Shown here: positions 12,949 to 49,530 of the stretch, one piece after another
Layout of the letters: each line of letters begins with the position of its first letter
How positions within the stretch are numbered: position 1 is the stretch's first letter
Source: an uncultured Bacilli bacterium
GTDB lineage: Bacteria > Bacillota_I > Bacilli_A > RF39 > UBA660
Assembly: GCA_904502155.1 (NCBI GenBank)
Contig: CAJGDV010000001.1
Coordinates: 1-59,632 of the forward strand
Length of the DNA stretch: 59,632 nt
Reading direction: 5' to 3'
Program-made: the position numbers and the translations under genes
Notes under the pieces: generated by a model
Databases searched by the model: none
What the model saw: the letters and a program-made list of their open reading frames with translations, nothing else
Told to the model about the DNA's origin: nothing

Positions 12949-15009
12949 ATGAGTAAGGATGAATTAATTAAAATACTAACTGAATTAAAAAACAGTAGTA
13001 TGAATGACGAAAATGTAATTTCTCAAATTAATGATATTGAAAAAATCATTGAACTTAAAAATGCTAAAGAAGAAGAAATGTTAAAATTTAAAGAAATGAT
13101 GGAAGAAGATTTTGAGATAAGAGATGAAAGATTAATAAATCTTGAAGAATTAGTTGCTAATGCTAGAATTTTAGTTGAAGAAAACAAAGAAGCATTAGAT
13201 AGAAATGAATTAATTGTACATCATATTAATTTAGATACTAATATCATGAAAAGAGAAATTGAATTAATCAATTTAAGAAATGAAGAAATCAAAAAAAATA
13301 TGTCTTCAGTTTCTAATGAAAAATATCAAGCGCAATTTAATGAAGAACTTAATAATAATATGAACAAAATATCTGAACTAAACAACAAAATTGATAACAA
13401 TAATAATTTAGCTAATAGATATAATGAATATATTGTTCAATTAAAAGAACAAGATACTTTTTTAAATAATCAATTAAATACATATATGAGTAATTTAGAT
13501 GAGTATAAACAAGAACTTGAAAAAACAAATAAAAAAGAAGAACAAATGAATAATGCAGTTCAAGTATATAATAGTTTTGATTTAGTACAAAATAATTTAA
13601 TGTTTAATAATTATTTTAATAATTTAGAAAATAAGATTAACAATAATAATATGGATGAAAATTCATTAGATGAAATGAATAAATATAAAAACAATGTATC
13701 TGATATTCTATTATTAAATGCTCCGGAAAAAAGAAATGAAGAAATTATTAAAAATACAATGGCTAAAAATTATTATGAAACAAAAAATGGCTTTGTAAGT
13801 AGTTCACAAAAAGATATAGATTCAAATAAAGAAGATATTAATATTGCAAAAATTAATTTAAAAATTAAAGAAAATGAAACACAACTAGTAAAACTTGATA
13901 ATACTTATAATCAAGCTATAAATTCAAATGAAAATTTAAATAAAGAAGCTAATAAAATAAATTTAGAAAATAAAATTTTAAGAAAAAGAATAAAAAATAA
14001 AAATATTGATAATGAACTAAAAATCCAATTACAAAATAATTTATCAGAAAACGAAAAAAAATTAATAGAAATAAAAGCAGAAATCAAAAATAATGAAATT
14101 GTTATTAATGAAAATGAACAAGCTAAATTAAATTGCCAAAATAAAATTGATAGATATAAAGTATTATTGGATAATAAAGAACATAGAAAACAAAATGAGC
14201 AAAATACTGAAGTATTACAAAAAGAAGAAAAAATTAATAATAATTTAATTATTCATGCATTAAATACAAAAGAAAGAATGCTTAATAGTGAAATACCTAT
14301 GTTACTTGGAAATTTAAAAGACCAAACTAAATACAATGCACCATTAATTGAAAACGACCCTAATGTTATTGAAGGAGAATTTAAAGTTCTTAATGATGAT
14401 GTTGAAGAAAATAAAGTAGATGAAGTTGTTGAAAAAGAAGAAATAGTTAAAGAACCAGAACAATTTGAAATATTATCTGTAAAAAGACCTTTAAAAGAAA
14501 AAATGAAAGCTAAGATTAAAAAAGTTTCAGCAGCAATAGTTGCAAGTATGTTGATTATAGCATCAGCAGTTCCAACAATGGTTCCTAATCAAAATAACAT
14601 GGAAGAAGTAAATACTAGAATTATTGAAAATATTGAAGAAGAAAAATTAACTGGTAATGAAACAGTTGAAGAAATAGCAGAAAAAATAGGTATAAATGAT
14701 ACAATTACTGTTAAAGAAGATGCTTCAATTTATTACACTCAATATGATGCAACAGAAAAAACAAATGCATTAGATCCTGTTCATGAAAGAGAAATGGAAA
14801 GAAATGTTATAGGTGCAACTGTTAAAATGCCTGATGGATCATTACAATTTACACAAAATAATGAGATGTTAGATTCATTAGTAAATAACGGTGGAGAAAT
14901 AACTTCATATTTAACAGGAAATGAACATGAAGCAGAAGGTTTCTGGAATGTTAATGATATAAACAAAGTTAATCAAATGAATCAAGAAATGGGAGGTATG
15001 ACACGATGA
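12949..15009 (+). CDS. hypothetical bitopic coiled-coil protein: ~520-aa cytoplasmic N/K/E-rich coiled coil, one TM, ~140-aa extracellular tail (cassette A)
   Basis: AGGAGG RBS. Heptad-like low-complexity helical sequence. KMKAKIKK followed by hydrophobic VSAAIVASMLIIASAVPTMV. Paralogous architecture to 43698-47135. Confidence 0.8.
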   Translation: MSKDELIKILTELKNSSMNDENVISQINDIEKIIELKNAKEEEMLKFKEMMEEDFEIRDERLINLEELVANARILVEENKEALDRNELIVHHINLDTNIMKREIELINLRNEEIKKNMSSVSNEKYQAQFNEELNNNMNKISELNNKIDNNNNLANRYNEYIVQLKEQDTFLNNQLNTYMSNLDEYKQELEKTNKKEEQMNNAVQVYNSFDLVQNNLMFNNYFNNLENKINNNNMDENSLDEMNKYKNNVSDILLLNAPEKRNEEIIKNTMAKNYYETKNGFVSSSQKDIDSNKEDINIAKINLKIKENETQLVKLDNTYNQAINSNENLNKEANKINLENKILRKRIKNKNIDNELKIQLQNNLSENEKKLIEIKAEIKNNEIVINENEQAKLNCQNKIDRYKVLLDNKEHRKQNEQNTEVLQKEEKINNNLIIHALNTKERMLNSEIPMLLGNLKDQTKYNAPLIENDPNVIEGEFKVLNDDVEENKVDEVVEKEEIVKEPEQFEILSVKRPLKEKMKAKIKKVSAAIVASMLIIASAVPTMVPNQNNMEEVNTRIIENIEEEKLTGNETVEEIAEKIGINDTITVKEDASIYYTQYDATEKTNALDPVHEREMERNVIGATVKMPDGSLQFTQNNEMLDSLVNNGGEITSYLTGNEHEAEGFWNVNDINKVNQMNQEMGGMTR

Positions 15010-15272
15010 GTTTTTTACAAAAATTAGATATGGTAAAATTAAGTGATAATCAAACATATGTTCTTGCTGAAATGATTAATGAAAATAATATTGATTATTT
15101 AATGTTAATAAAAGCAGATGAAAATGGAGAAATGACTGAAGAAGTTGTTTATGGAAAAATAGTTGTTTTACCTACTAGAAAATATGGAATTGAAACAATT
15201 GAAGATAAAGAGTTAAAAGCACATTTAGCTGAAATATTTCTTCCAATGTTTAAAGAAGATTATGAACAATAA
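15006..15272 (+). CDS. DUF1292-like small acidic protein, translationally coupled to the coiled-coil gene
   Basis: ATGA start/stop overlap, GGAGGT RBS. Pattern (short beta N-terminus, Y.L, acidic loop, acidic C-terminus) resembles DUF1292/UPF0473. Counterpart at 47152-47397. Confidence 0.7.
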   Translation: MSFLQKLDMVKLSDNQTYVLAEMINENNIDYLMLIKADENGEMTEEVVYGKIVVLPTRKYGIETIEDKELKAHLAEIFLPMFKEDYEQ

Positions 15273-30254: not shown

Positions 30255-31403
30255 ATGGCAAAAATTGATTTTAATAATATTGATGAAAAAACAAAAGGAT
30301 ATATAAAAATAGGAATTATCATACTAGGTTTATTAGTTGGCTTTTTAATAATTTTATTAGTTGTAAAACTTTTTATTGGGTCAGTTGTACCATTTGATAA
30401 AATAGAAAATATAATGGTTAGAGCAGCAGACCAATATATGACTAAACATGAAGATAAATTTAATAAAAGCGAACCATATGAAACAATTGAATTAAATGTA
30501 AGTGATTTAGTTGTTGAAGGATATATGAAAGACTTTAGTAAATATACAGAAAAAAATGTTATGTGTAACGGTAAAGTTCTTGTAATTAGAAATGATGAAA
30601 ATGTAAGTTATATTCCAAAATTAGATTGTGGAGATGCATACAAATATAAAGAACTAGTTGAAACAATTATTGCACCAGAAAATATTGTTACAGCTGATTC
30701 TGGCTTATATAAAATCGAAACAGAAACTCCATATTACATGTTTAGAGGTGAGTATCCAGACAATTATGTAAGTTATGCCGGTTCTACATGGAGAATAATG
30801 AAAATTAATGAACAAGGAAATATACAACTTATTTCAGATGATCATAAAGTTAATAGTCCATGGGATAATAGATATAATGTTGATAAAAAAGGTATCGATG
30901 GTATTAATGAATTTGAAGGAACACAAGCATGTAGATTAAAAGATAATATTATTGGATTATATAATGATGAAGAATATATTACAAAAGAAAATAAATCTTT
31001 ATTAATTCCACAACAACTATGTATTGAAAAACGTTCATCAAAAGAATTTGATAATACTGGAAATAAAGAGTGTTCTAAAAAATCAGAATTAATGGGATTA
31101 GGTTCAATATATTTATCTGAATTTATTCAATCATCATTAGATTCTAATTGTTTAAATGCTGGTTCATGGGCATGTGCTAATTATAATTATTTAACAAAAT
31201 ATAAATATGCTTTCTGGACAATTACAGCTAATAGTGATAACTCTTATCAAGCTTATTTTGTTGATAATTTTGCTAAAGTTGGTACAACATCAAGAGGAGC
31301 ATATATTAGACTAACAGCAGTAATTAATGGTAAAATAAATTATAAATCTGGAACTGGAACTGAAACAGATCCATATATTATTGAACCAATTACAGTTAAA
31401 TAA
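30255..31403 (+). CDS. hypothetical membrane-anchored extracellular protein (7 Cys); N-terminal ectodomain paralogous to that of 42302-43687
   Basis: GGAGG RBS, one N-terminal TM helix. Shared pattern after the TM with the 461-aa protein. Ends GTGTETDPYIIEP. Confidence 0.7.
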   Translation: MAKIDFNNIDEKTKGYIKIGIIILGLLVGFLIILLVVKLFIGSVVPFDKIENIMVRAADQYMTKHEDKFNKSEPYETIELNVSDLVVEGYMKDFSKYTEKNVMCNGKVLVIRNDENVSYIPKLDCGDAYKYKELVETIIAPENIVTADSGLYKIETETPYYMFRGEYPDNYVSYAGSTWRIMKINEQGNIQLISDDHKVNSPWDNRYNVDKKGIDGINEFEGTQACRLKDNIIGLYNDEEYITKENKSLLIPQQLCIEKRSSKEFDNTGNKECSKKSELMGLGSIYLSEFIQSSLDSNCLNAGSWACANYNYLTKYKYAFWTITANSDNSYQAYFVDNFAKVGTTSRGAYIRLTAVINGKINYKSGTGTETDPYIIEPITVK

Positions 31404-41551: not shown

Positions 41552-42181
41552 ATGAAACACAAAATATATGTTCTTTTTTTATTCTTTTTTTTTCTAATTA
41601 CAAATGTTAATTCTAAATCGTTGCCATTAAAAGATAAAATAATTGTTTTAGATCCTGGTCATGGTGGTGTTGATAAAGGTGCATCATATTATAATGAAAA
41701 TGAATCTGATTTAGTTCTTAATATATCAACAATACTAAAAGAAGAACTTGAAAAAAAAGGAGCCATCGTTTATCAAACGAGAAAAGGTAATTATGATTTA
41801 TCAAGTCCTAATACTAAAAGAAGAAAAAAAAGTGATTTTGATAATAGAATTAAGTTTATTAATGAAATTAATCCGACATTAATAATCTCAATACATTTAA
41901 ATGCCAGCAATAATAATAATTATAATGGAATTCAGATATTTTATAAAAATAATAATGAATTAGCACAATCTATTTCAAATGCCTTAAATTTAAGAAGAAA
42001 ACCAGTTAAAAGAAATAATATATATTTATTAAATAATCTAAAATATGATGCTTTTCTAATAGAATGGGGTTTCATTTCAAATTATAATGATCTAAGAAAA
42101 ATTAAGGATAAAAACAATATTAGACAAACATCATTAAAACTAATAAATGGTTTATTAAAATTTTATAATGTTTCAACTTGA
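41552..42181 (+). CDS. cwlD: N-acetylmuramoyl-L-alanine amidase (Amidase_3), CwlD-like
   Basis: Signal/anchor followed by LDPGHGGVDKGA and SIHLNA motifs. Lies downstream of rplM-rpsI, as cwlD does in Bacillus. Confidence 0.75.
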   Translation: MKHKIYVLFLFFFFLITNVNSKSLPLKDKIIVLDPGHGGVDKGASYYNENESDLVLNISTILKEELEKKGAIVYQTRKGNYDLSSPNTKRRKKSDFDNRIKFINEINPTLIISIHLNASNNNNYNGIQIFYKNNNELAQSISNALNLRRKPVKRNNIYLLNNLKYDAFLIEWGFISNYNDLRKIKDKNNIRQTSLKLINGLLKFYNVST

Positions 42182-42240
42182 CAAGAATGTATATATATAG
42201 TATATTAATCTAATTTCTTTTTGGAAATTAATATCAAAAG

Positions 42241-42269
42241 TTGTAAATGGACTTTTTATATGTTATAAT
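42241..42269 (+). promoter_or_regulatory. sigma-A-type promoter of cassette B
   Basis: TTGTAA, 17 nt spacer, TGtTATAAT. Confidence 0.55.
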
Positions 42270-42301: not shown

Positions 42302-43687
42302 ATGGATGAGAAAATTACCCATGGAACGTATGAGGAAAAAAAGCTAAAATTTAAGCATTTTAAGGCTTTTGTAATTATACTTTTAATTATACTACTTGTT
42401 ATACTAATTTTATGTATAAGATCATGTAGTATGGGGAATAAAGAAAAAAATCTATTAAATGCGGCTAAACAATATTATCAAAACGATTCATCAGCACTAC
42501 CTAAAAATCCTGGAGAATGTTCAAGATTAGGAGTAAATGATTTAATTTCTAAACAATTAATCAAAGATGCTAGTTCATATAGTCAATGTAATCGTGATGA
42601 AACTTATATTAAAGTTTGTATGTTAGAAAGTGGAAATTATCAATATACTCCACATATAAAATGTAATACTGAAGATGATACTAATTTTACTGATTATGTA
42701 GAAGGAAAAGAAACAGATTTAATTGCTGATAAATCAGATGTTAGATTTTTATATTTACCTGAAATTTATAGCAATAAAGTTAAGTTATATTATCCTAATA
42801 ATGTAAAAGTAGTTGACGAAGTAATTGAATATTATAAAGAGGTTCCTAGTGAAGGTTATACATATAAAAATAAAAATGAAGCAACGGGATATAAATGGTA
42901 CATTGAAGAAACAGGTACTACATATTGGAATAATGGTGGTTATTCTTCTACACAACCTGATGGATATCCAACAAAAGGTGATGAAGGAAATGCTGCTGTC
43001 AATATTAGTTTAACTGAACCAGAAGCAAAAGAATATAGAACAGTAAACAAGCAAACAGTATATAGAAGTAGAGCAGCTGTAGTTGCTAAAGTTTTAAGTT
43101 ATGTATGTTCTGATCCAAAATTATCAGGATATATTGCTTCACCAACACAATGTGAAAAAAGAAATGCATCATCACATAAAGTAACAGCATATACTAAATA
43201 TACATGTGATGGTAAAACTGAAGTTAGCAAAGGTAAAATATGTTCATATGGTTCATGGTCTAATTGGACTGCTAATGTATGTACAAAATCAGATACTGTT
43301 GATTGTGAATCAAAAGAAGGATATGTATACAAAGATAGAGTATGGAAATGGTATTTAGAAGGTACTCATCGTAAATATTATCCAAGTAATAGTGCAACTG
43401 CTGACGAAGAAAAAACATATTATGTATCACAACCTAAGGAAGGTTACATAAAAGATGAAAATACAAAAGCAAAAGTTTATAAATATTATAAATTAACTGA
43501 TGAAGAAAACACTGAAACTACAAATGATGGAGACTGGATTCAAGTTGGCGATGAATATTTATCAGAAGAAGAATTGATTTTAGCATTCCAAACATTAAAC
43601 TATGAAGTTAACAGTCTTGCAGATATAAATAACAAAAAAGATATGATAAGATATCAATTAAAACTAGAATATAGAAATAGAAGATAG
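42302..43687 (+). CDS. hypothetical membrane-anchored, Cys-rich extracellular protein (about 10 ectodomain Cys)
   Basis: AGGAGG RBS, one TM helix. The ectodomain starts like that of 30255-31403. Contains a WSNWT..C element and Y/W-rich repeats. Confidence 0.75.
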   Translation: MDEKITHGTYEEKKLKFKHFKAFVIILLIILLVILILCIRSCSMGNKEKNLLNAAKQYYQNDSSALPKNPGECSRLGVNDLISKQLIKDASSYSQCNRDETYIKVCMLESGNYQYTPHIKCNTEDDTNFTDYVEGKETDLIADKSDVRFLYLPEIYSNKVKLYYPNNVKVVDEVIEYYKEVPSEGYTYKNKNEATGYKWYIEETGTTYWNNGGYSSTQPDGYPTKGDEGNAAVNISLTEPEAKEYRTVNKQTVYRSRAAVVAKVLSYVCSDPKLSGYIASPTQCEKRNASSHKVTAYTKYTCDGKTEVSKGKICSYGSWSNWTANVCTKSDTVDCESKEGYVYKDRVWKWYLEGTHRKYYPSNSATADEEKTYYVSQPKEGYIKDENTKAKVYKYYKLTDEENTETTNDGDWIQVGDEYLSEEELILAFQTLNYEVNSLADINNKKDMIRYQLKLEYRNRR

Positions 43688-43697
43688 GAGAGATAGT

Positions 43698-46600
43698 ATG
43701 AATAAAGAAGAAATGTTACAATCCTTAAAAGATTTAAAATTCAATATTAACGGCGGATTAGTTGATAACGAAACGAAAGAAAAATTAGAAAATTTAGAAA
43801 TCGATTTAAATTTATTAGATGATGAAATTTTTGAACTTTCTAATAAAATTCAAGATGATACTAATTATCCAACATTCTTTGCACTATATGATGAAGCAGA
43901 AGTAAGTAATGCAAAAAGAGAATTAAATATTGCTAAGGCTGGATTAGAATCAACTAAATTAACTATAGCGCAAGTTGAAGAGTATATTGCATATATCAAA
44001 CGTGAAATTGAAGAAAACAATAAAAAAATGGCAGAATTAAATAGAGAAAATTTAGAACAAGGAGCACGCTTAAGAGAATTAGGTATAACTCCAAATCCTG
44101 AAGAAGAAAATTTAATTCGTGAAACTTTAAATGTAAATAGAAATGAAATTTCAAAATTAAATATTAAAAATGATAGAGCAAAACAAATTTTAGTTGAAAA
44201 TGAAAATCAATTAACAGGATTATTAAATAATAAATCTGATTTTGAAAATAAAATGAATAATGCTCAAATCAACTTAAACAATGCTGAAAGTTTACAAGCA
44301 AGTCGTCCACTTGTTAATGAAGCAAAAAGAAATATAGATAAAGAAGAATTAGATGATTTAAAATATATTAAATCTACTATGGAAAATGAAAAATCAGCTT
44401 TATCTATAAATTTAGCAGATGAAGTTGAAAAAATTATTAACGATTTACAAGCTGATGTAATAACAGTTAATGATGTAAACAACAGATTAGAAGATTTAAA
44501 AAGAAATATGCCAGCAGGATATTTTAATGCTGATGTTGAAGATAGAAATAACGAATTAGTTCAAAATAGAAAAGTTCAAGTTGAACTAGAAGATAAAATT
44601 AATAATTTAACAGCAAAAGTTAATAATGTTGATAATTATAGATATTCTGATGCTGAATTAGCTCGTGAAGAAGAAAAAGTCAAAATTCTTGCTGTTAAAG
44701 TTCAAAATTCAAATTTAAAAATTGTTGAATTTGAAAAAGCAAAACAACAATTAGAAAGTGATTTAATTGAACAAAATAAAAAAGTTGAATCACGTGAAGT
44801 AGAAAATAGAATTATTGGTTTAAAAGCACAATTAAGAAGAGCAAAAACTAATGAACAAAGAGAACAAATTAACAAAGAAATAGAAGCATCACAAAAAGAA
44901 GCATGGAATGATTTAAACGAATTAACAGATAAAAAAGCTGAATTAGAATTAGTTAATTCATCATTAGTTGCTGAAGAATCAAATCTTGAAAGATATGTTA
45001 AGTTACATGAAAATGCTGTTAATAGAAAAGAAGATATTGACAGACGTTTAAAAAATAACGAAGTTCAAAATTCATATCAAAAAAGATTAGATGAAATGGA
45101 ATTAGCTAAATCTAAAGCTTCATTAGAAGCATTAAAAAATAGAGCTCAATTTATTTCATTACCAGTTTTAGAACAAGTAAATAATTTAATCAATAATAAT
45201 GTTAAAGTTGAAGAAAACAAAGAACCAGTATTTAAAGGTAAAAATGGAGAAGAAATTAAAGTTGGAGCTCCACTTCCATTTGATAATGATTTAGGTGTTA
45301 AAGATTCATCATTCGATGAAAAAACAAATCAAATTTTTATGGATGAACCAAAATCAAATTCATTAGAAGAAAATATTTTAAATACTTTAAATAATGATCC
45401 TAAATTAGGTGGATTAAAATTCTCTTTCCCAGATCAAAATGAAGAAGAAAAAGAAAATGAAGAAATTAATCCAATATTTAATCCTGAAATTAATTTAGAT
45501 GAACAAGAATTAAATAATGAGGAACAACAATTAAATAATGAAGAACAAGAATTAAATGTTGAAAATAATGAAGAAGTTGTTGAAGAAGAAAAAGAAGAAG
45601 AAAAAGAAGAAACAAAAGTGGTTCCAGTTGTTGGAAAAATGAAAGCTAAATTTAAAGAAGCTTCAGATAAATTAAAAAATAAAGCTAAAGATTTAAATTT
45701 CAGAGCAAAACTTAAAAAATGGGCTAAAGTTATTGCTGTAGTTGCTGCATCTGCAGTATTATTAGTAGCAAGTGGTAAATTACCTCAAAAAACTTTAGAA
45801 GATTTACAAGATCCACAAGTTATTGAACAAATTGATAATGAAGAATTAGATCCAAACGAAATAATCGAAGAGGATGTAAAAGAAGAAGAAAACAAAGAAG
45901 AAGTTGTTGAAGAAGAAAAAGAAGATGTTGTTGAAGAAAATAATAATAATAATGTTGTTGAAGATAAAAAAGAAAATGAAAATCAAAATCAAGTAGGTGG
46001 AAATCCAAATCCATCAAATAATAATAACAACAACAGTAATAATAATAATAGCAACAATAACAACAACAATAATAACAACAATAACAACGGTTCAAACCCT
46101 GTTGATGATCATGATAATTCTGATGAAATAACTGTTCCAGAAGAAAATAATAATAATCAAGATGATATTACAATAGATGAAGATACACCAGTAGAAGAAA
46201 TTGTTGATGATGCAGTTATTGAAGATGATAATAATGATGCAGTTATTGAAGACGATAATAATGATGCAGTTATTGAAGATGATGAAAACAATGACGCAGT
46301 TATTGATGATGAAAATAATGATGCAGTTATTGATGATGAAAATGAAGAAGTTTTCGATAATGAAGATCAATTTGGTAACGAAGATGAATTCGAAAATGGT
46401 GAAAATAATGACGGTGTTATTGAAGACGATCAAGAAAATGTTTTTGATAACGAAGACCAATTTGGTAATGAAGATGAATTCGAAAATGGAGAAAACAATG
46501 ATGGTGTTGTTGAAGACGATCAAGAAAATGTTTTCGACAATGAAGATCAATTTGATAATAATGAAAATGAAAATAATAATGATCAAAATACTGAACAAGA

Positions 46601-47135
46601 AGATGTTTATGACAATGAAGATCAATTTGACAACAATCAAAATGACAATAGTACAAATGATGAACCAGTTGTTGAAGAAGATGTTTATGACAATGAAGAT
46701 CAATTTGATAACAGCCAAAATGATAGTAGTACAAATGATGAACCAGTTGTTGAAGAAGAAGTTTATGACAACTTAGAAGATACTAATAACAATGTAGAAG
46801 ATAATACTCAAGAAGAAGTATACGACAATGTAGAAGATAATAATGTTCAAGATAACAATCAAACTACTGATCAAATCGAAGTTTTACCAGGAGAAACTTA
46901 TTTAAATGATCAACAAGAAGAAGTTTATACAAATGGTGGAAATGTTGATGATGCAATTGAAAAAGAACCAAATATCGAATCAATTGAACAAGGCGAAGAT
47001 AAAGACATATTAAATGTTTATACTAATGAAGAACAAATTAGTTACAACTCAGAAATTGAACAATTAAAACAACTTAGAGAATATTACGCTAATAACACAA
47101 TTGAAGAAGAAAATTCTATGACAAGATCATTATAA
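43698..47135 (+). CDS. hypothetical 1145-aa bitopic protein: ~650-aa cytoplasmic coiled coil, one TM, ~450-aa extracellular poly-Asn and hyper-acidic repeat tail (cassette B)
   Basis: RBS GGAGAG. The N-terminal 14-mer and the KMKAK-plus-TM segment resemble 12949-15009. The tail has repeated V[FY]DNEDQF motifs. Confidence 0.85.
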   Translation: MNKEEMLQSLKDLKFNINGGLVDNETKEKLENLEIDLNLLDDEIFELSNKIQDDTNYPTFFALYDEAEVSNAKRELNIAKAGLESTKLTIAQVEEYIAYIKREIEENNKKMAELNRENLEQGARLRELGITPNPEEENLIRETLNVNRNEISKLNIKNDRAKQILVENENQLTGLLNNKSDFENKMNNAQINLNNAESLQASRPLVNEAKRNIDKEELDDLKYIKSTMENEKSALSINLADEVEKIINDLQADVITVNDVNNRLEDLKRNMPAGYFNADVEDRNNELVQNRKVQVELEDKINNLTAKVNNVDNYRYSDAELAREEEKVKILAVKVQNSNLKIVEFEKAKQQLESDLIEQNKKVESREVENRIIGLKAQLRRAKTNEQREQINKEIEASQKEAWNDLNELTDKKAELELVNSSLVAEESNLERYVKLHENAVNRKEDIDRRLKNNEVQNSYQKRLDEMELAKSKASLEALKNRAQFISLPVLEQVNNLINNNVKVEENKEPVFKGKNGEEIKVGAPLPFDNDLGVKDSSFDEKTNQIFMDEPKSNSLEENILNTLNNDPKLGGLKFSFPDQNEEEKENEEINPIFNPEINLDEQELNNEEQQLNNEEQELNVENNEEVVEEEKEEEKEETKVVPVVGKMKAKFKEASDKLKNKAKDLNFRAKLKKWAKVIAVVAASAVLLVASGKLPQKTLEDLQDPQVIEQIDNEELDPNEIIEEDVKEEENKEEVVEEEKEDVVEENNNNNVVEDKKENENQNQVGGNPNPSNNNNNNSNNNNSNNNNNNNNNNNNGSNPVDDHDNSDEITVPEENNNNQDDITIDEDTPVEEIVDDAVIEDDNNDAVIEDDNNDAVIEDDENNDAVIDDENNDAVIDDENEEVFDNEDQFGNEDEFENGENNDGVIEDDQENVFDNEDQFGNEDEFENGENNDGVVEDDQENVFDNEDQFDNNENENNNDQNTEQEDVYDNEDQFDNNQNDNSTNDEPVVEEDVYDNEDQFDNSQNDSSTNDEPVVEEEVYDNLEDTNNNVEDNTQEEVYDNVEDNNVQDNNQTTDQIEVLPGETYLNDQQEEVYTNGGNVDDAIEKEPNIESIEQGEDKDILNVYTNEEQISYNSEIEQLKQLREYYANNTIEEENSMTRSL
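46017..46088 (+). repeat. AAT/AAC codon run encoding N6-S-N4-S-N12
   Basis: Counted codon by codon. A simple trinucleotide-like tract inside the CDS. Confidence 0.9.
46209..46343 (+). repeat. five tandem 24-30-nt units encoding DAVI(E/D)D(E)NN
   Basis: The unit gatgcagttattgaagatgataataat recurs with minor variation. Confidence 0.9.
46344..46523 (+). repeat. two tandem 90-nt units encoding E(E/N)VFDNEDQFGNEDEFENGENNDGV(I/V)EDDQ
   Basis: Copies at 46344-46433 and 46434-46523 are nearly identical at protein level, with synonymous differences. A third, degenerate copy follows. Confidence 0.9.
46602..46757 (+). repeat. two tandem 78-nt units encoding DVYDNEDQFDN(N/S)QND(N/S)STNDEPVVEE
   Basis: Copies at 46602-46679 and 46680-46757. 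Confidence 0.9.
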
Positions 47136-47151
47136 TAGGAGGGTAAAAAAG

Positions 47152-47397
47152 ATGGAAAACAGAATAAATCAAGTTGTTGAACTAGAAAATGGTAAGGAAT
47201 ATTATATTCTTAAACAAGCTGTTTATGGTGGAGACAATTATTTTGTTGCAGCTGAGGTTAGTGAAGACGGTGAAGATTTAAAAGACAAATTTATAATCTT
47301 ACACGAAACAAAAGAAAATGGAGAATCATATATTGAATTTGAAAATGATTCTAAAATAATACAAATTTTATTAAAGCATTTACATATAGAAGGATAA
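47152..47397 (+). CDS. DUF1292-like small acidic protein (partner of cassette B)
   Basis: AGGAGGG RBS 16 nt after the large gene. Same size and pattern as 15006-15272. Confidence 0.7.
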   Translation: MENRINQVVELENGKEYYILKQAVYGGDNYFVAAEVSEDGEDLKDKFIILHETKENGESYIEFENDSKIIQILLKHLHIEG

Positions 47398-47418
47398 GTT
47401 TTTACTTATCCTTTTTTA
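47391..47418 (+). terminator. intrinsic terminator of cassette B
   Basis: aggataagt-tttt-acttatcct followed by a T-run. Confidence 0.8.
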
Positions 47419-47483: not shown

Positions 47484-48422
47484 ATGTCAAACAATAACAA
47501 AATATTTAAAAACTTAGATGAACAAATTCAAATTCTTCTTGATAAAGGATTAATAATTAATGATGTTGATCATGCTAAGGAAATTTTATTAAAGGAAAAC
47601 TATTTTTTTATAAGTGGATATAGACACTTATTTATGAAATCAAAAAAACAAACTTCATTTATTGAAGGAACAACATTTGATGAATTGTATGCAATGCTTA
47701 TTTTTGATAGAAAAATGAGAAACATTTTTTTTAAATGGATTTTAGTAATAGAAAATAATATTAAATCAATTTTAAGTTATCAATTGTCAAAAAAATATGG
47801 TTTTAAAGAAAAAGATTATTTAAATCCTAAAAACTTCACTGTTGATAACATGAAAACAAGACAAGTTCATGATATTTTGAATAAAGTAAAAAGACAAATT
47901 AGAGTTAATGGTAATCAACATGCTGCAACATATCATTATATAGCAAATTATGGATATGTTCCTATGTGGATACTTGTTAAGGTTCTTTCTTTTGGATTAA
48001 TTTCAGAATTTTATGGAATTTTAAAAACTGAAGATCAATTAAAAATAGCTGAATTATATAATTTAGATATTGAAACATTATCATGCTATTTAACAATATT
48101 AGCAAATTATCGTAATATTTGTGCTCATGAAGAAGTTTTATATGAGCATAGAACACAACGTTCTATACCAGATACAAAATATCATCGTAATTTAAATATT
48201 GACTTAATAGATGATGAATATGCATATGGAAAAAATGATATATATGCTGTAATTATAATAATGAAACAACTATTATTAGATACTGAATTTAGAGATCTTA
48301 TTAATGAAGTTTCTTATGAAGTTGATATATTAAATGGAAAAGTAAGTTCTGTTCCATTAAATAATATCTTAAATAGATGTGGTTTCCCTGACAATTGGAA
48401 AGATATTTCAGACTTAGACTAA
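47484..48422 (+). CDS. Abi_2 family (AbiD/AbiF-like) abortive-infection protein
   Basis: FDRKMRNIFFKWILVIENNIKS, VPMWILVKVLSFGLISEFY and LANYRNICAHEE match the conserved blocks of the Abi_2 family as I recall them. Confidence 0.85.
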   Translation: MSNNNKIFKNLDEQIQILLDKGLIINDVDHAKEILLKENYFFISGYRHLFMKSKKQTSFIEGTTFDELYAMLIFDRKMRNIFFKWILVIENNIKSILSYQLSKKYGFKEKDYLNPKNFTVDNMKTRQVHDILNKVKRQIRVNGNQHAATYHYIANYGYVPMWILVKVLSFGLISEFYGILKTEDQLKIAELYNLDIETLSCYLTILANYRNICAHEEVLYEHRTQRSIPDTKYHRNLNIDLIDDEYAYGKNDIYAVIIIMKQLLLDTEFRDLINEVSYEVDILNGKVSSVPLNNILNRCGFPDNWKDISDLD

Positions 48423-48432
48423 GGAGGACATA

Positions 48433-49530
48433 ATGAAAAAAAATACAAAAGTCGTAGTAAATGCATCATATGTTATAAGCATATTAATTGCATTATTTAC
48501 AGGAATAATTGGAACAATTTGTGTTTATAAATTTATTCCAAACAAGACAATAACAACAAAACAAGAAAGTAAAATAACATTAACAGAACAAGATACAATT
48601 AGTTCTGCAATAGGAAAAGTAAACGATGCTGTTGTATATATAGAATCATATCAAAGAAATGTAGCTGCTGGTAGTGGTACAGGATTCTTTTATAAAACAG
48701 ATGAACAGTATGGTTATATTATTACAAATAATCATGTTGTAGAAGATGCTCAAAAAGTTGAGGTTACTGTTACAAATGGTTCACAATATGAAGCTAAAAT
48801 ATTAGGAACAGATGAATATTCAGATATTGCAGTATTACAAGTTCCAAAAGAAGCAGCAATAGCAGTTACAACAATTGGAGAAAGTGCTGAATCAAAAGTA
48901 GGAGATACAATCTTTACAGTAGGATCACCTTTAGGTATTGAATATATGAATTCAGTTACAAAAGGTATTATCTCAGGAAAAGATAGAACAATTGAGGTTA
49001 CATTATCAAATGGTGATTACTTAATGGAAGTAATTCAATTAGATGCTGCAATAAATCCAGGAAATAGTGGAGGACCATTATGTAACATTAATGGTGAAGT
49101 AATTGGTGTTAATTCATTAAAACTTGTAAAAAATGAAGTTGAAGGAATGGGATTTGCTATTCCAATTGAATATGTAATGACACTAGTTCCACAATTAGAA
49201 ACTGGTGAAAAAGTTAAAAAACCTCTAATTGGAGTTGAAATGTTAAGTATTGGAGATACATGGCAATTATATAGAAATGGTATCATGATTAGTGAAGATA
49301 TTGAATATGGTGTTGTAATTGTAAATGTATCAAAAGGTAAACCAGCTGATAAAGCAGGACTTAAAAAAGGCGATGTAATTGTAGAATTTGCCGGTAAAGA
49401 AGTAAAAAGCATGGCTTATTTTAGATATTTATTATATAAACAAGCTGTTGGTGATACAGTAAAAATTAAATATTTTAGAGATGGTAAAGTAAAAGAAGCA
49501 TCTATAGTTTTAACAGAAAGTTCAAATTAA
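48433..49530 (+). CDS. htrA: HtrA/DegP-type membrane-anchored serine protease with PDZ domain
   Basis: N-terminal TM. Catalytic His (TNNHVV), Asp (DIAVLQ) and Ser (GNSGGPL). PDZ element GLKKGDVIVEFAG. Confidence 0.92.
   Translation: MKKNTKVVVNASYVISILIALFTGIIGTICVYKFIPNKTITTKQESKITLTEQDTISSAIGKVNDAVVYIESYQRNVAAGSGTGFFYKTDEQYGYIITNNHVVEDAQKVEVTVTNGSQYEAKILGTDEYSDIAVLQVPKEAAIAVTTIGESAESKVGDTIFTVGSPLGIEYMNSVTKGIISGKDRTIEVTLSNGDYLMEVIQLDAAINPGNSGGPLCNINGEVIGVNSLKLVKNEVEGMGFAIPIEYVMTLVPQLETGEKVKKPLIGVEMLSIGDTWQLYRNGIMISEDIEYGVVIVNVSKGKPADKAGLKKGDVIVEFAGKEVKSMAYFRYLLYKQAVGDTVKIKYFRDGKVKEASIVLTESSN

Follow-up and report, generated by a model that had tools for sequence, protein, structure and literature searches.

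A conserved three-gene operon of uncultured gut Bacilli and its possible role as a cytoplasm-to-wall tether

A stretch of 59,632 nucleotides (nt) from an uncultured Bacilli bacterium (GTDB lineage Bacilli_A; RF39; UBA660; GenBank assembly GCA_904502155.1, contig CAJGDV010000001.1, hereafter the window) carries three adjacent genes that form one operon. Gene 1 encodes a membrane-anchored protein rich in tyrosine and cysteine, gene 2 a large helical protein predicted to cross the membrane once, and gene 3 a small acidic protein resembling the DUF1292 family. The three genes have stayed together in several genomic surroundings, and many relatives of the gene 2 protein carry a peptidoglycan-binding repeat just beyond their membrane helix. 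Our best explanation, to which we give about an even chance, is that the operon encodes a tether or scaffold complex linking the cytoplasm to the cell wall.

Organisation of the operon

The features of the operon, all on the + strand, are as follows.

42178-42269, +, two candidate sigma-70-type promoters (consensus scan, unverified)
42302-43687, +, gene 1, open reading frame (ORF) of 461 amino acids (aa)
43698-47135, +, gene 2, ORF of 1145 aa
47152-47397, +, gene 3, ORF of 81 aa
47388-47420, +, intrinsic terminator with a 12-bp core stem, a 4-nt loop and a U-run

The three genes are co-directional and separated by spacers of 10 nt (gene 1/gene 2) and 16 nt (gene 2/gene 3), exactly as a preliminary description of this DNA had reported them, and a GGAG-type ribosome-binding site precedes each of the three starts. 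That description had also assigned the genes one promoter and one terminator, of which the terminator was borne out: a hairpin directly 3' of the last stop codon (~47388-47415) folds at -15 kcal/mol, with a z-score of -6.1 against shuffled sequences, although it was found by folding and was not picked up by a simple terminator scan. The promoter proposed at 42241-42269 (TTGTAA-17-TGtTATAAT, a 10/12 consensus match with an extended TG) did not hold up as well, a better site being present at 42178-42206 (TTGACA-17-TATATT, 11/12). Since promoter-like sites are not enriched over shuffles in this DNA of 27% GC (45 found, 41.5 +/- 6.8 expected), a promoter upstream of gene 1 is plausible but unproven.

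Scans of Pfam and NCBIfam with all five proteins considered here, namely those of the operon and of a second gene pair in the window at 12949-15272, gave no shared domain, and none of the operon proteins reached a curated threshold. With no significant Pfam, NCBIfam, PDB or Foldseek match for any of the three operon proteins, the earlier view that none has an assignable function still stands. We found no published work on the three families, nor a cultured source organism for any of their members.

The gene 2 protein

The gene 2 protein is predicted from its sequence to be bitopic, with its N-terminus in the cytoplasm and its C-terminus outside. Its parts, in order, are the following.

43785-44483, +, cytoplasmic helical unit 1, residues 30-262 (alignments, hhalign)
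44550-45212, +, cytoplasmic helical unit 2, residues 285-505 (hhalign)
45213-45728, +, linker and basic patch (translation, heptad profile, motif positions)
45729-45785, +, single transmembrane (TM) helix, residues 678-696 (Kyte-Doolittle window score 2.02)
45786-47135, +, tail of 449 aa, predicted extracytoplasmic (composition)

Units 1 and 2 matched each other in hhalign at 99.7% (E = 2.9e-25), and on this profile evidence unit 2 is an internal duplicate of unit 1, each being of ~230 aa. Both start near K(I/L)xDDxNY and finish with IDxxKKxxDxxxL...L..D...EL..II, and most representative homologs match as two stretches, consistent with the presence of two units. Residues 506-646 make up an acidic linker containing proline and glycine, and residues 647-677 a basic juxtamembrane patch (KMKAK...KLKKWAK), with KMKAK at 647 and KLKKWAK at 671. 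EEVVE occurs on either side of this patch, at 624 and 733. The TM helix thus has a basic cluster on its N-terminal side and the acidic tail on the other. KLKKWAK, the single TM helix and a tail of ~450 aa had all been recognised previously and were found again here, while the ~650 aa of coiled coil then ascribed to the protein proved too generous, strong heptad periodicity (on a crude score) being seen in only ~290 residues of the first 650 (mean of shuffles, 113), and residues ~506-646 being the acidic Pro/Gly linker. The two-unit cytoplasmic region is the only part of gene 2 shared with paralogs devoid of a TM helix; this subfamily (X, 550-725 aa) retains both units (96%, E ~1e-9) as well as the small partner.

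A search of 1.84 billion representative proteins with a gene 2 N-terminal profile gave 87 clusters at E <= 1e-10, of which ~75 (at 50% identity) are colinear from residue 1 and 560-1170 aa in length; the weaker matches were pieces of giant coiled-coil proteins, which we regard as noise. When the N-terminal profile was applied to a class-level sample of 300 genomes, nothing credible was found outside the order, only coiled-coil noise, and as far as these sequence searches reach, the gene 2 family is confined to this order. In a word-based protein search, gene 2 had matches within its own species (96-99% identity), in a single sister species (67%) whose entire neighbourhood is syntenic, and nowhere else; a whole-genome search of our order-level sample (151 genomes in 87 genera) matched it directly in one other genus of the 87, at 25% identity. 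Judged by these identities the protein evolves very fast. A characterised scaffold family, which would have taken away the novelty of the protein, was looked for with Pfam and NCBIfam profiles and none was encountered; the MapZ, EzrA, DivIVA and GpsB models gave no match at E <= 1 for gene 2, and none among its 25 + 53 relatives.

A wall-binding repeat in the tails of relatives

The tail of the window protein is hyper-acidic, rich in asparagine and repetitive, with 156 Asp and Glu, 11 Lys and Arg, and 100 Asn. Tail sequence class varies between genera and may be acidic/Asn-rich, (EP)n, proline-rich or marked by the repeat CW_7; in the ortholog from genome G131, for example, the TM helix is followed by an (EP)n spacer of ~100 repeats, and the tail is Pro-rich in some other orthologs. 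Pfam and NCBIfam searches with five isolated tails found no domain shared by them.

Scanning 53 representatives of the gene 2 family for CW_7 (PF08230, Pfam cut-off 25 bits) revealed a single full-length repeat in 14 of them, at 46-70 bits and always 60-100 residues C-terminal to the TM helix. CW_7, through which the pneumococcal phage lysozyme Cpl-7 binds the wall, recognises the muropeptide GMDP, GlcNAc-MurNAc-L-Ala-D-isoGln (PMC5705596). Its position just after the TM helix in these relatives therefore supports the N-in/C-out topology, and its presence shows that the family points its outer end towards peptidoglycan. The three CW_7 bearers that we looked up lie in loci of the order Amidase_3, ~455 aa, large protein, ~81 aa, Abi_2, and by this gene order they are orthologs of the window gene 2. 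The suggestion in the preliminary description of a membrane-spanning scaffold linking cytoplasm and cell surface, as a prediction, gains support from the repeats.

Among strains of the same species (P0002-P0030) the tail ranges from 410 to 497 aa with the TM helix at a constant position, which, from the sequences, points to variation in repeat copy number. In three MAG loci (L113, L125 and L126) the large gene appears to be split between two ORFs (e.g. of 760 and 187 aa) or is interrupted by runs of N, which may reflect frameshifts or faulty assembly of the repetitive tail.

Such variability could also be read as that of a variable surface display or shield, in which the exposed tail and the gene 1 ectoprotein would serve, for example, to adhere, to bind cations or to escape recognition by phage or host, the cytoplasmic part being a mere anchor. 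The strain-to-strain changes in length beyond an invariant TM helix, the switching of tail class between genera, the low identity of orthologs within a single genus (28-33%) and the multi-copy nature of the modules would all fit this explanation. However, the best-conserved parts, the two units and the small partner, are cytoplasmic, TM-less paralogs exist, and a mere anchoring role would leave 500 aa of conserved cytoplasmic sequence and a dedicated cytoplasmic partner unexplained. We therefore consider a display function quite unlikely.

Conservation and genomic contexts of the three genes

At least 15 loci of related Bacilli, known as metagenome-assembled genomes (MAGs) from the human and animal gut, carry the three-gene set, which occurs in three genomic contexts. 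In the first, which accounts for at least 12 loci (among them G131, L095-L097, L102, L106, L119 and L133-L135), the order is Amidase_3, gene 1, gene 2, gene 3, Abi_2, HtrA. In the second, seen in two genera (L036 = G044:C9 and L037 = G081:C1), the whole cassette lies between spoIIGA-sigE and sigG. In the third (G057) it follows rnr-smpB.

In small genomes, three unrelated genes might also be adjacent only through frozen gene order. In at least 12 loci synteny extends over the entire Amidase_3-HtrA block, so that much of the conserved adjacency falls within general synteny, and one locus (L115) has the gene 2-gene 3 pair and lacks gene 1. Yet the triple is intact in three unrelated contexts, its genes overlap or sit less than 20 nt apart, and in a wider set of loci a small gene follows a large one in 20 cases out of 20 (see below). 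Because the set is preserved intact in three contexts with its genes overlapping or nearly abutting, we take it to be a functional unit beyond frozen synteny, and chance retention of neighbours to be improbable.

On the 5' side of the operon, the Amidase_3 gene (window 41552-42181; ~210-229 aa) is syntenic, and several relatives have a gene for a NodB-type deacetylase ahead of it (the NodB-deacetylase/Amidase_3 loci being L005 4208-6275, L106 and L119). We read the Amidase_3 protein (~218 aa) as CwlD-like because of its size and its position after rplM-rpsI, where cwlD also lies in B. subtilis, and in our reading its pairing with NodB resembles CwlD/PdaA, i.e. genes for the spore-cortex lactam.

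This neighbourhood raises the question of a sporulation-specific apparatus, expressed in the mother cell or forespore and tethering a layer in the cytoplasm, either coat or engulfment machinery, across a forespore membrane to the cortex or intermembrane peptidoglycan. The placement of the triple between spoIIGA-sigE and sigG in two genera speaks for it, as does the common locus, which follows the Amidase_3 gene that we read as CwlD-like, with the NodB deacetylase before that in several loci. From its gene content the lineage appears to consist largely of spore-forming, small-genome gut Bacilli, SpoIIGA being present in 129 of the 151 sampled genomes; the source assembly (1.25 Mb, 84% complete) itself carries ftsA-ftsZ-spoIIGA-sigE and a SleB homolog. 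SpoIIGA is likewise present in all five sampled genomes that have the full triple, but five out of five is expected by chance at a prevalence of 85%, and this co-occurrence is thus uninformative for the triple. In addition, the wider large-plus-small module is not restricted to genomes with SpoIIGA (G128, for example, has no SpoIIGA), its other contexts are housekeeping ones (tsaE, rplQ, rpmF, rpsR, cysS), the after-smpB context of the triple itself is unrelated to sporulation, and no sigma-E, sigma-G or sigma-K promoter was identified. A function specific to sporulation thus strikes us as fairly unlikely.

The SpoIIGA ORF of the source genome, which lies outside the window (G000:C25:6498-7073), is only 191 aa long and covers positions 144-284 of the Pfam model at E = 7e-11, while the SpoIIGA proteins of relatives give full-length Pfam matches at ~1e-40; that of the source genome may be truncated or degenerating.

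A pared-down type VII secretion system (T7SS) locus is found further downstream in the window (52.4-59.4 kb), and the cassette could in principle supply its missing membrane components. The cassette is ~5 kb from essC both in the window and in L002. However, none of its proteins shows Pfam or NCBIfam similarity to EssB, EsaA or EssA, five unrelated genes intervene between the cassette and the locus, and T7SS-like genes are evident neither in the ~5 kb downstream of the G131 cassette nor among the flanking ORFs in G044, G081 and G057. We regard a role in type VII secretion as scarcely credible.

Directly 3' of the cassette, an Abi_2 gene and htrA (window 47484-49530) are in conserved chromosomal synteny in at least nine loci, and the Abi_2 gene is therefore an old resident and no sign of a recent defence island. 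An origin of the cassette from a mobile element or defence island was rejected, as its GC content equals that of its surroundings (26.5% for the cassette, 27.2% for the window) and its Abi_2 neighbour belongs to this conserved synteny.

The small partner and the large-plus-small module

The gene 3 protein (81 aa) is acidic and has neither a signal peptide nor a TM helix. It had been called DUF1292-like, and the likeness was upheld by a match to Pfam DUF1292 (PF06949) at 20.2 bits (E = 0.0011), while membership of the family was not, the gathering threshold being 24 bits; sub-threshold DUF1292 matches were likewise obtained for four of seven gene 3 orthologs. Its AlphaFold 2 (AF2) model has five beta-strands and a C-terminal helix, with a predicted local distance difference test score (pLDDT) of 83. 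A Foldseek comparison of this model with the PDB returned small-barrel matches only, none of them significant (HEX-1, E = 0.2), and a gene 3 profile found no match among PDB sequences.

The genome also holds a canonical DUF1292 copy elsewhere (G000:C39:6774-7061, 43 bits), in a ruvX-DUF1292-mltG context, and jackhmmer found no link between this copy and the family of small partner proteins. Since the genome holds this canonical gene as well, the partner small proteins are taken to be a separate, divergent branch. To our knowledge, DUF1292-type proteins are a near-universal Firmicute family of no known function, and in the literature we found DUF1292 only in passing annotations.

Relatives of gene 3 were detected with its profile in 92 of the 151 genomes and 57 of the 87 genera, often in several copies. 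When 20 of these loci were fetched, the small gene lay directly 3' of a co-directional large ORF (285-1260 aa) in every one, at distances of -74 to +19 nt; the adjacency of a large and a small gene, first noted in the window, is therefore not peculiar to this genome. The contexts of these pairs were varied and mostly housekeeping (tsaE, rplQ, rpmF, rpsR and cysS).

The large partners in the rpmF and tsaE contexts have no detectable homology to the two-unit family. This rules out the idea that all large partners belong to one family, and it follows that the small proteins serve more than one kind of large protein. A Pfam and NCBIfam survey of 25 large partners gave no shared domain, only single DnaJ and EF-hand cases: in L091 (3228-4409) a DUF1292-like small gene has as its partner a membrane protein of 394 aa with an N-terminal DnaJ (J) domain, and another large partner carries EF-hands. 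These two cases lead us to conclude that the small proteins serve unrelated large partners.

A second, paralogous pair in the window

The window contains a second large-plus-small pair.

12949-15009, +, paralogous large protein of 686 aa (hhalign)
15006-15272, +, paralogous small partner of 88 aa (ORF; overlaps the large gene by ATGA)

The 686-aa protein shares the two-unit region at its N-terminus, crosses the membrane with a single TM helix (residues 526-544) and has a short tail that ends in a conserved domain of ~110 aa. This extracytoplasmic C-terminal domain (window 14500-15006; also L093 and L094) is the best-conserved part of the paralog and follows the pattern ITV..DA.IY...DA...N...P...E...IG.T..MPDG...F.Q......L...GG.I...LTG.....EG.WN..D, with no Pfam match. 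Syntenic orthologs of the 686-aa protein are present in the two other genomes of the genus (in the order rpsF-ssb-rpsR, large, small), with 28-33% identity.

The preliminary description had regarded the two pairs as paralogous on the basis of shared motifs. BLASTP between them was not significant (E = 0.03 and 1.3). For the large proteins paralogy was nevertheless established at profile level: an alignment of three 686-aa orthologs matched the N-terminal 330 aa of the operon type in hhalign at 98.1% (E = 8.4e-14), colinearly over ~300 columns, from which we conclude that the two large proteins of the window are true paralogs. The small proteins could be joined only transitively, jackhmmer on the collected set connecting the 81-aa and 88-aa types through intermediates in both directions. 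In the direct test the two types gave no significant hhalign match, an HMM of six gene 3 orthologs did not match the 88-aa paralog, and the latter had no match to the DUF1292 Pfam model at E <= 1. As to the motifs, KMKAK and EEVVE are indeed present in gene 2, but the shared C-terminal MTR was overstated: in most family members, by inspection, the C-terminal ending of G-G/MTR type coincides with the ribosome-binding site of the small gene, which overlaps the large gene or lies next to it, and it is probably no protein motif.

The gene 1 ectoprotein

Gene 1 had been described as encoding a cysteine-rich exported protein. The cysteines are there, 12 in all with 10 in the ectodomain, but the protein is richer still in tyrosine (43), and instead of being simply exported it is anchored by an N-terminal TM helix. 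A short cytoplasmic stub is followed by one long helix of 42 residues (20-61) comprising the TM segment and a stalk, then by a small alpha/beta module (residues ~62-125, strands 73-118) with four conserved Cys. The remainder of the ectodomain is all-beta, with six further Cys, YKWY and WSxW motifs and repeated units of the form K.YYP...YY..P..GY...YKWY. Gene 1 is easier to trace than gene 2, full-length homologs being found in several genera; 34 homologs were collected, none with a Pfam domain.

The AF2 model of the protein, built from an alignment of 37 sequences, is confident, with a pLDDT of 89 and a predicted template modelling score (pTM) of 0.58. Foldseek found no significant match for it in the PDB or BFVD (best E = 0.035 and 0.002, TM-scores ~0.06), and PDB sequence profiles of the whole protein and of its N-terminal module gave nothing significant. 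Neither Sushi/CCP nor thrombospondin type 1 domains were matched by Pfam in the middle of the protein, where a match to a factor H CCP, spanning the stretch YTCDG...C..W..C, was non-significant (E = 0.37).

The N-terminal TM helix and four-Cys module of gene 1 (~90 aa; window 42359-42691) constitute a multi-copy anchor module. It is present in 75 of the 151 genomes and 47 of the 87 genera, with as many as eight copies in one genome, joined to differing C-terminal parts of 130-1600 aa (loci L008-L035). A second copy in the window, at 30327-30656, belongs to a 382-aa protein encoded at 30255-31403.

A proposed cytoplasm-to-wall tether

The tether or scaffold that we favour at about even confidence would be built as follows. 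The gene 2 protein would span the membrane and keep its first 677 aa on the cytoplasmic side, where the duplicated helical units, partly coiled coil, and the acidic linker would form a platform. The small DUF1292-like protein, made in step with gene 2, would bind the two-unit region of this platform. Outside, the gene 2 tail would reach into or through the peptidoglycan; in many orthologs it would bind the wall directly by means of the CW_7 repeat, in place of which the window protein would have its 449-aa repetitive spacer of poly-acidic and poly-Asn sequence. The gene 1 ectoprotein, with its N-terminal helix as an anchor in that membrane, would be the extracytoplasmic partner. Observation shows that the genes keep their order and coupling, that the triple is conserved, which families the proteins belong to, that gene 2 is internally duplicated and varies in its tail, and that orthologs carry CW_7; from these we infer the topology, the physical interactions among the three proteins and the tethering role. 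The process served may be the organisation of the division site or envelope, or sporulation.

Several points weigh against this proposal. The window gene 2 protein has no CW_7 or other wall-binding module recognisable by Pfam, and its own contact with the wall is thus an extrapolation from its relatives. Its tail has a net charge of ~-145, and export of 449 aa of this kind by a protein with no signal peptide would be unusual. The locus devoid of gene 1 and the general synteny block, both described above, also tell against a coupled triple, and the large partners of the rpmF and tsaE contexts are a reminder that the small protein may be a more general factor.

A bolder extension, which we put forward tentatively and think unlikely, is that DUF1292-type proteins are dedicated cytoplasmic adaptors of wall-anchored, envelope-spanning scaffolds. 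The operon would then be a complete and undescribed trans-envelope apparatus of three parts, a cytoplasmic adaptor, a duplicated peptidoglycan-binding helical scaffold and a membrane-anchored beta-rich ectoprotein, acting at one particular place in the envelope, for which the sporulation septum, the forespore membrane and the division site are the most plausible candidates.

The significance of the operon lies in the fact that three unnamed families, for which we found no Pfam model, solved structure or literature, occur together as a conserved unit within a branch of gut Bacilli that is large but uncultured. CW_7 in the orthologs is the first clue that can be addressed by experiment, namely peptidoglycan binding on the outer side, and the obligatory small partner gives DUF1292-like proteins a recurring genetic context. 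If the tether proposal is true, a new architecture would join the few bacterial proteins that physically couple cytoplasm to wall, and it would provide a way into the envelope organisation of organisms that still resist cultivation.

Comparison with known systems

The small protein is closest to DUF1292/UPF0473 (PF06949, the YrzB type of B. subtilis), with which it shares a length of ~80-95 aa, an acidic composition and the same alternating-strand pattern. In contrast, gene 3 scores below the Pfam threshold and is not in the ruvX-mltG context, and members of the partner family always follow a large gene.

Gene 1 recalls type IV pilins (ComGC, PilA and modular pilins) in having a long N-terminal helix with a hydrophobic first half and, after it, a small module of beta-sheet in which conserved Cys occur in pairs. 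The succession of helix and strands at its base (helix 20-61, strands 73-118, four Cys) fits a pilin, but the match at fold level is non-significant, the minor pilin CofB giving a weak Foldseek match (E = 0.11), and PDB sequences gave none. Moreover, gene 1 (MDEKITHGTYEEKKLKFKHFKAFVIILL...) differs from pilins in having no G|FxxxE prepilin cleavage/methylation motif and no N_methyl Pfam match.

As regards the tail, proteins of the Cpl-7 type share with 14 of the 53 gene 2 relatives a full-length CW_7 repeat, whereas the relatives are bitopic helical proteins with no hydrolase domain and one repeat instead of three. The periplasm-spanning segment of TonB uses (EP)n as a rigid spacer, and the (EP)n run of the G131 ortholog is in this respect similar to TonB/TolA, though the host is monoderm, no ExbBD or TolQR partner is present and gene 2 has no homology to these proteins.

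The nearest parallel in design is offered by MapZ/LocZ of streptococci, FtsN (SPOR) and RodZ, which have their N-terminal domain in the cytoplasm, cross the membrane with one TM helix and continue outside as a flexible extracellular linker with an end that binds peptidoglycan. Gene 2 gave no Pfam match to these proteins at E <= 1, its cytoplasmic part is far longer and is duplicated, and it has dedicated partners, one small and cytoplasmic, the other extracytoplasmic and anchored in the membrane; even so, it appears to follow the same logic of a bitopic wall-binding scaffold.

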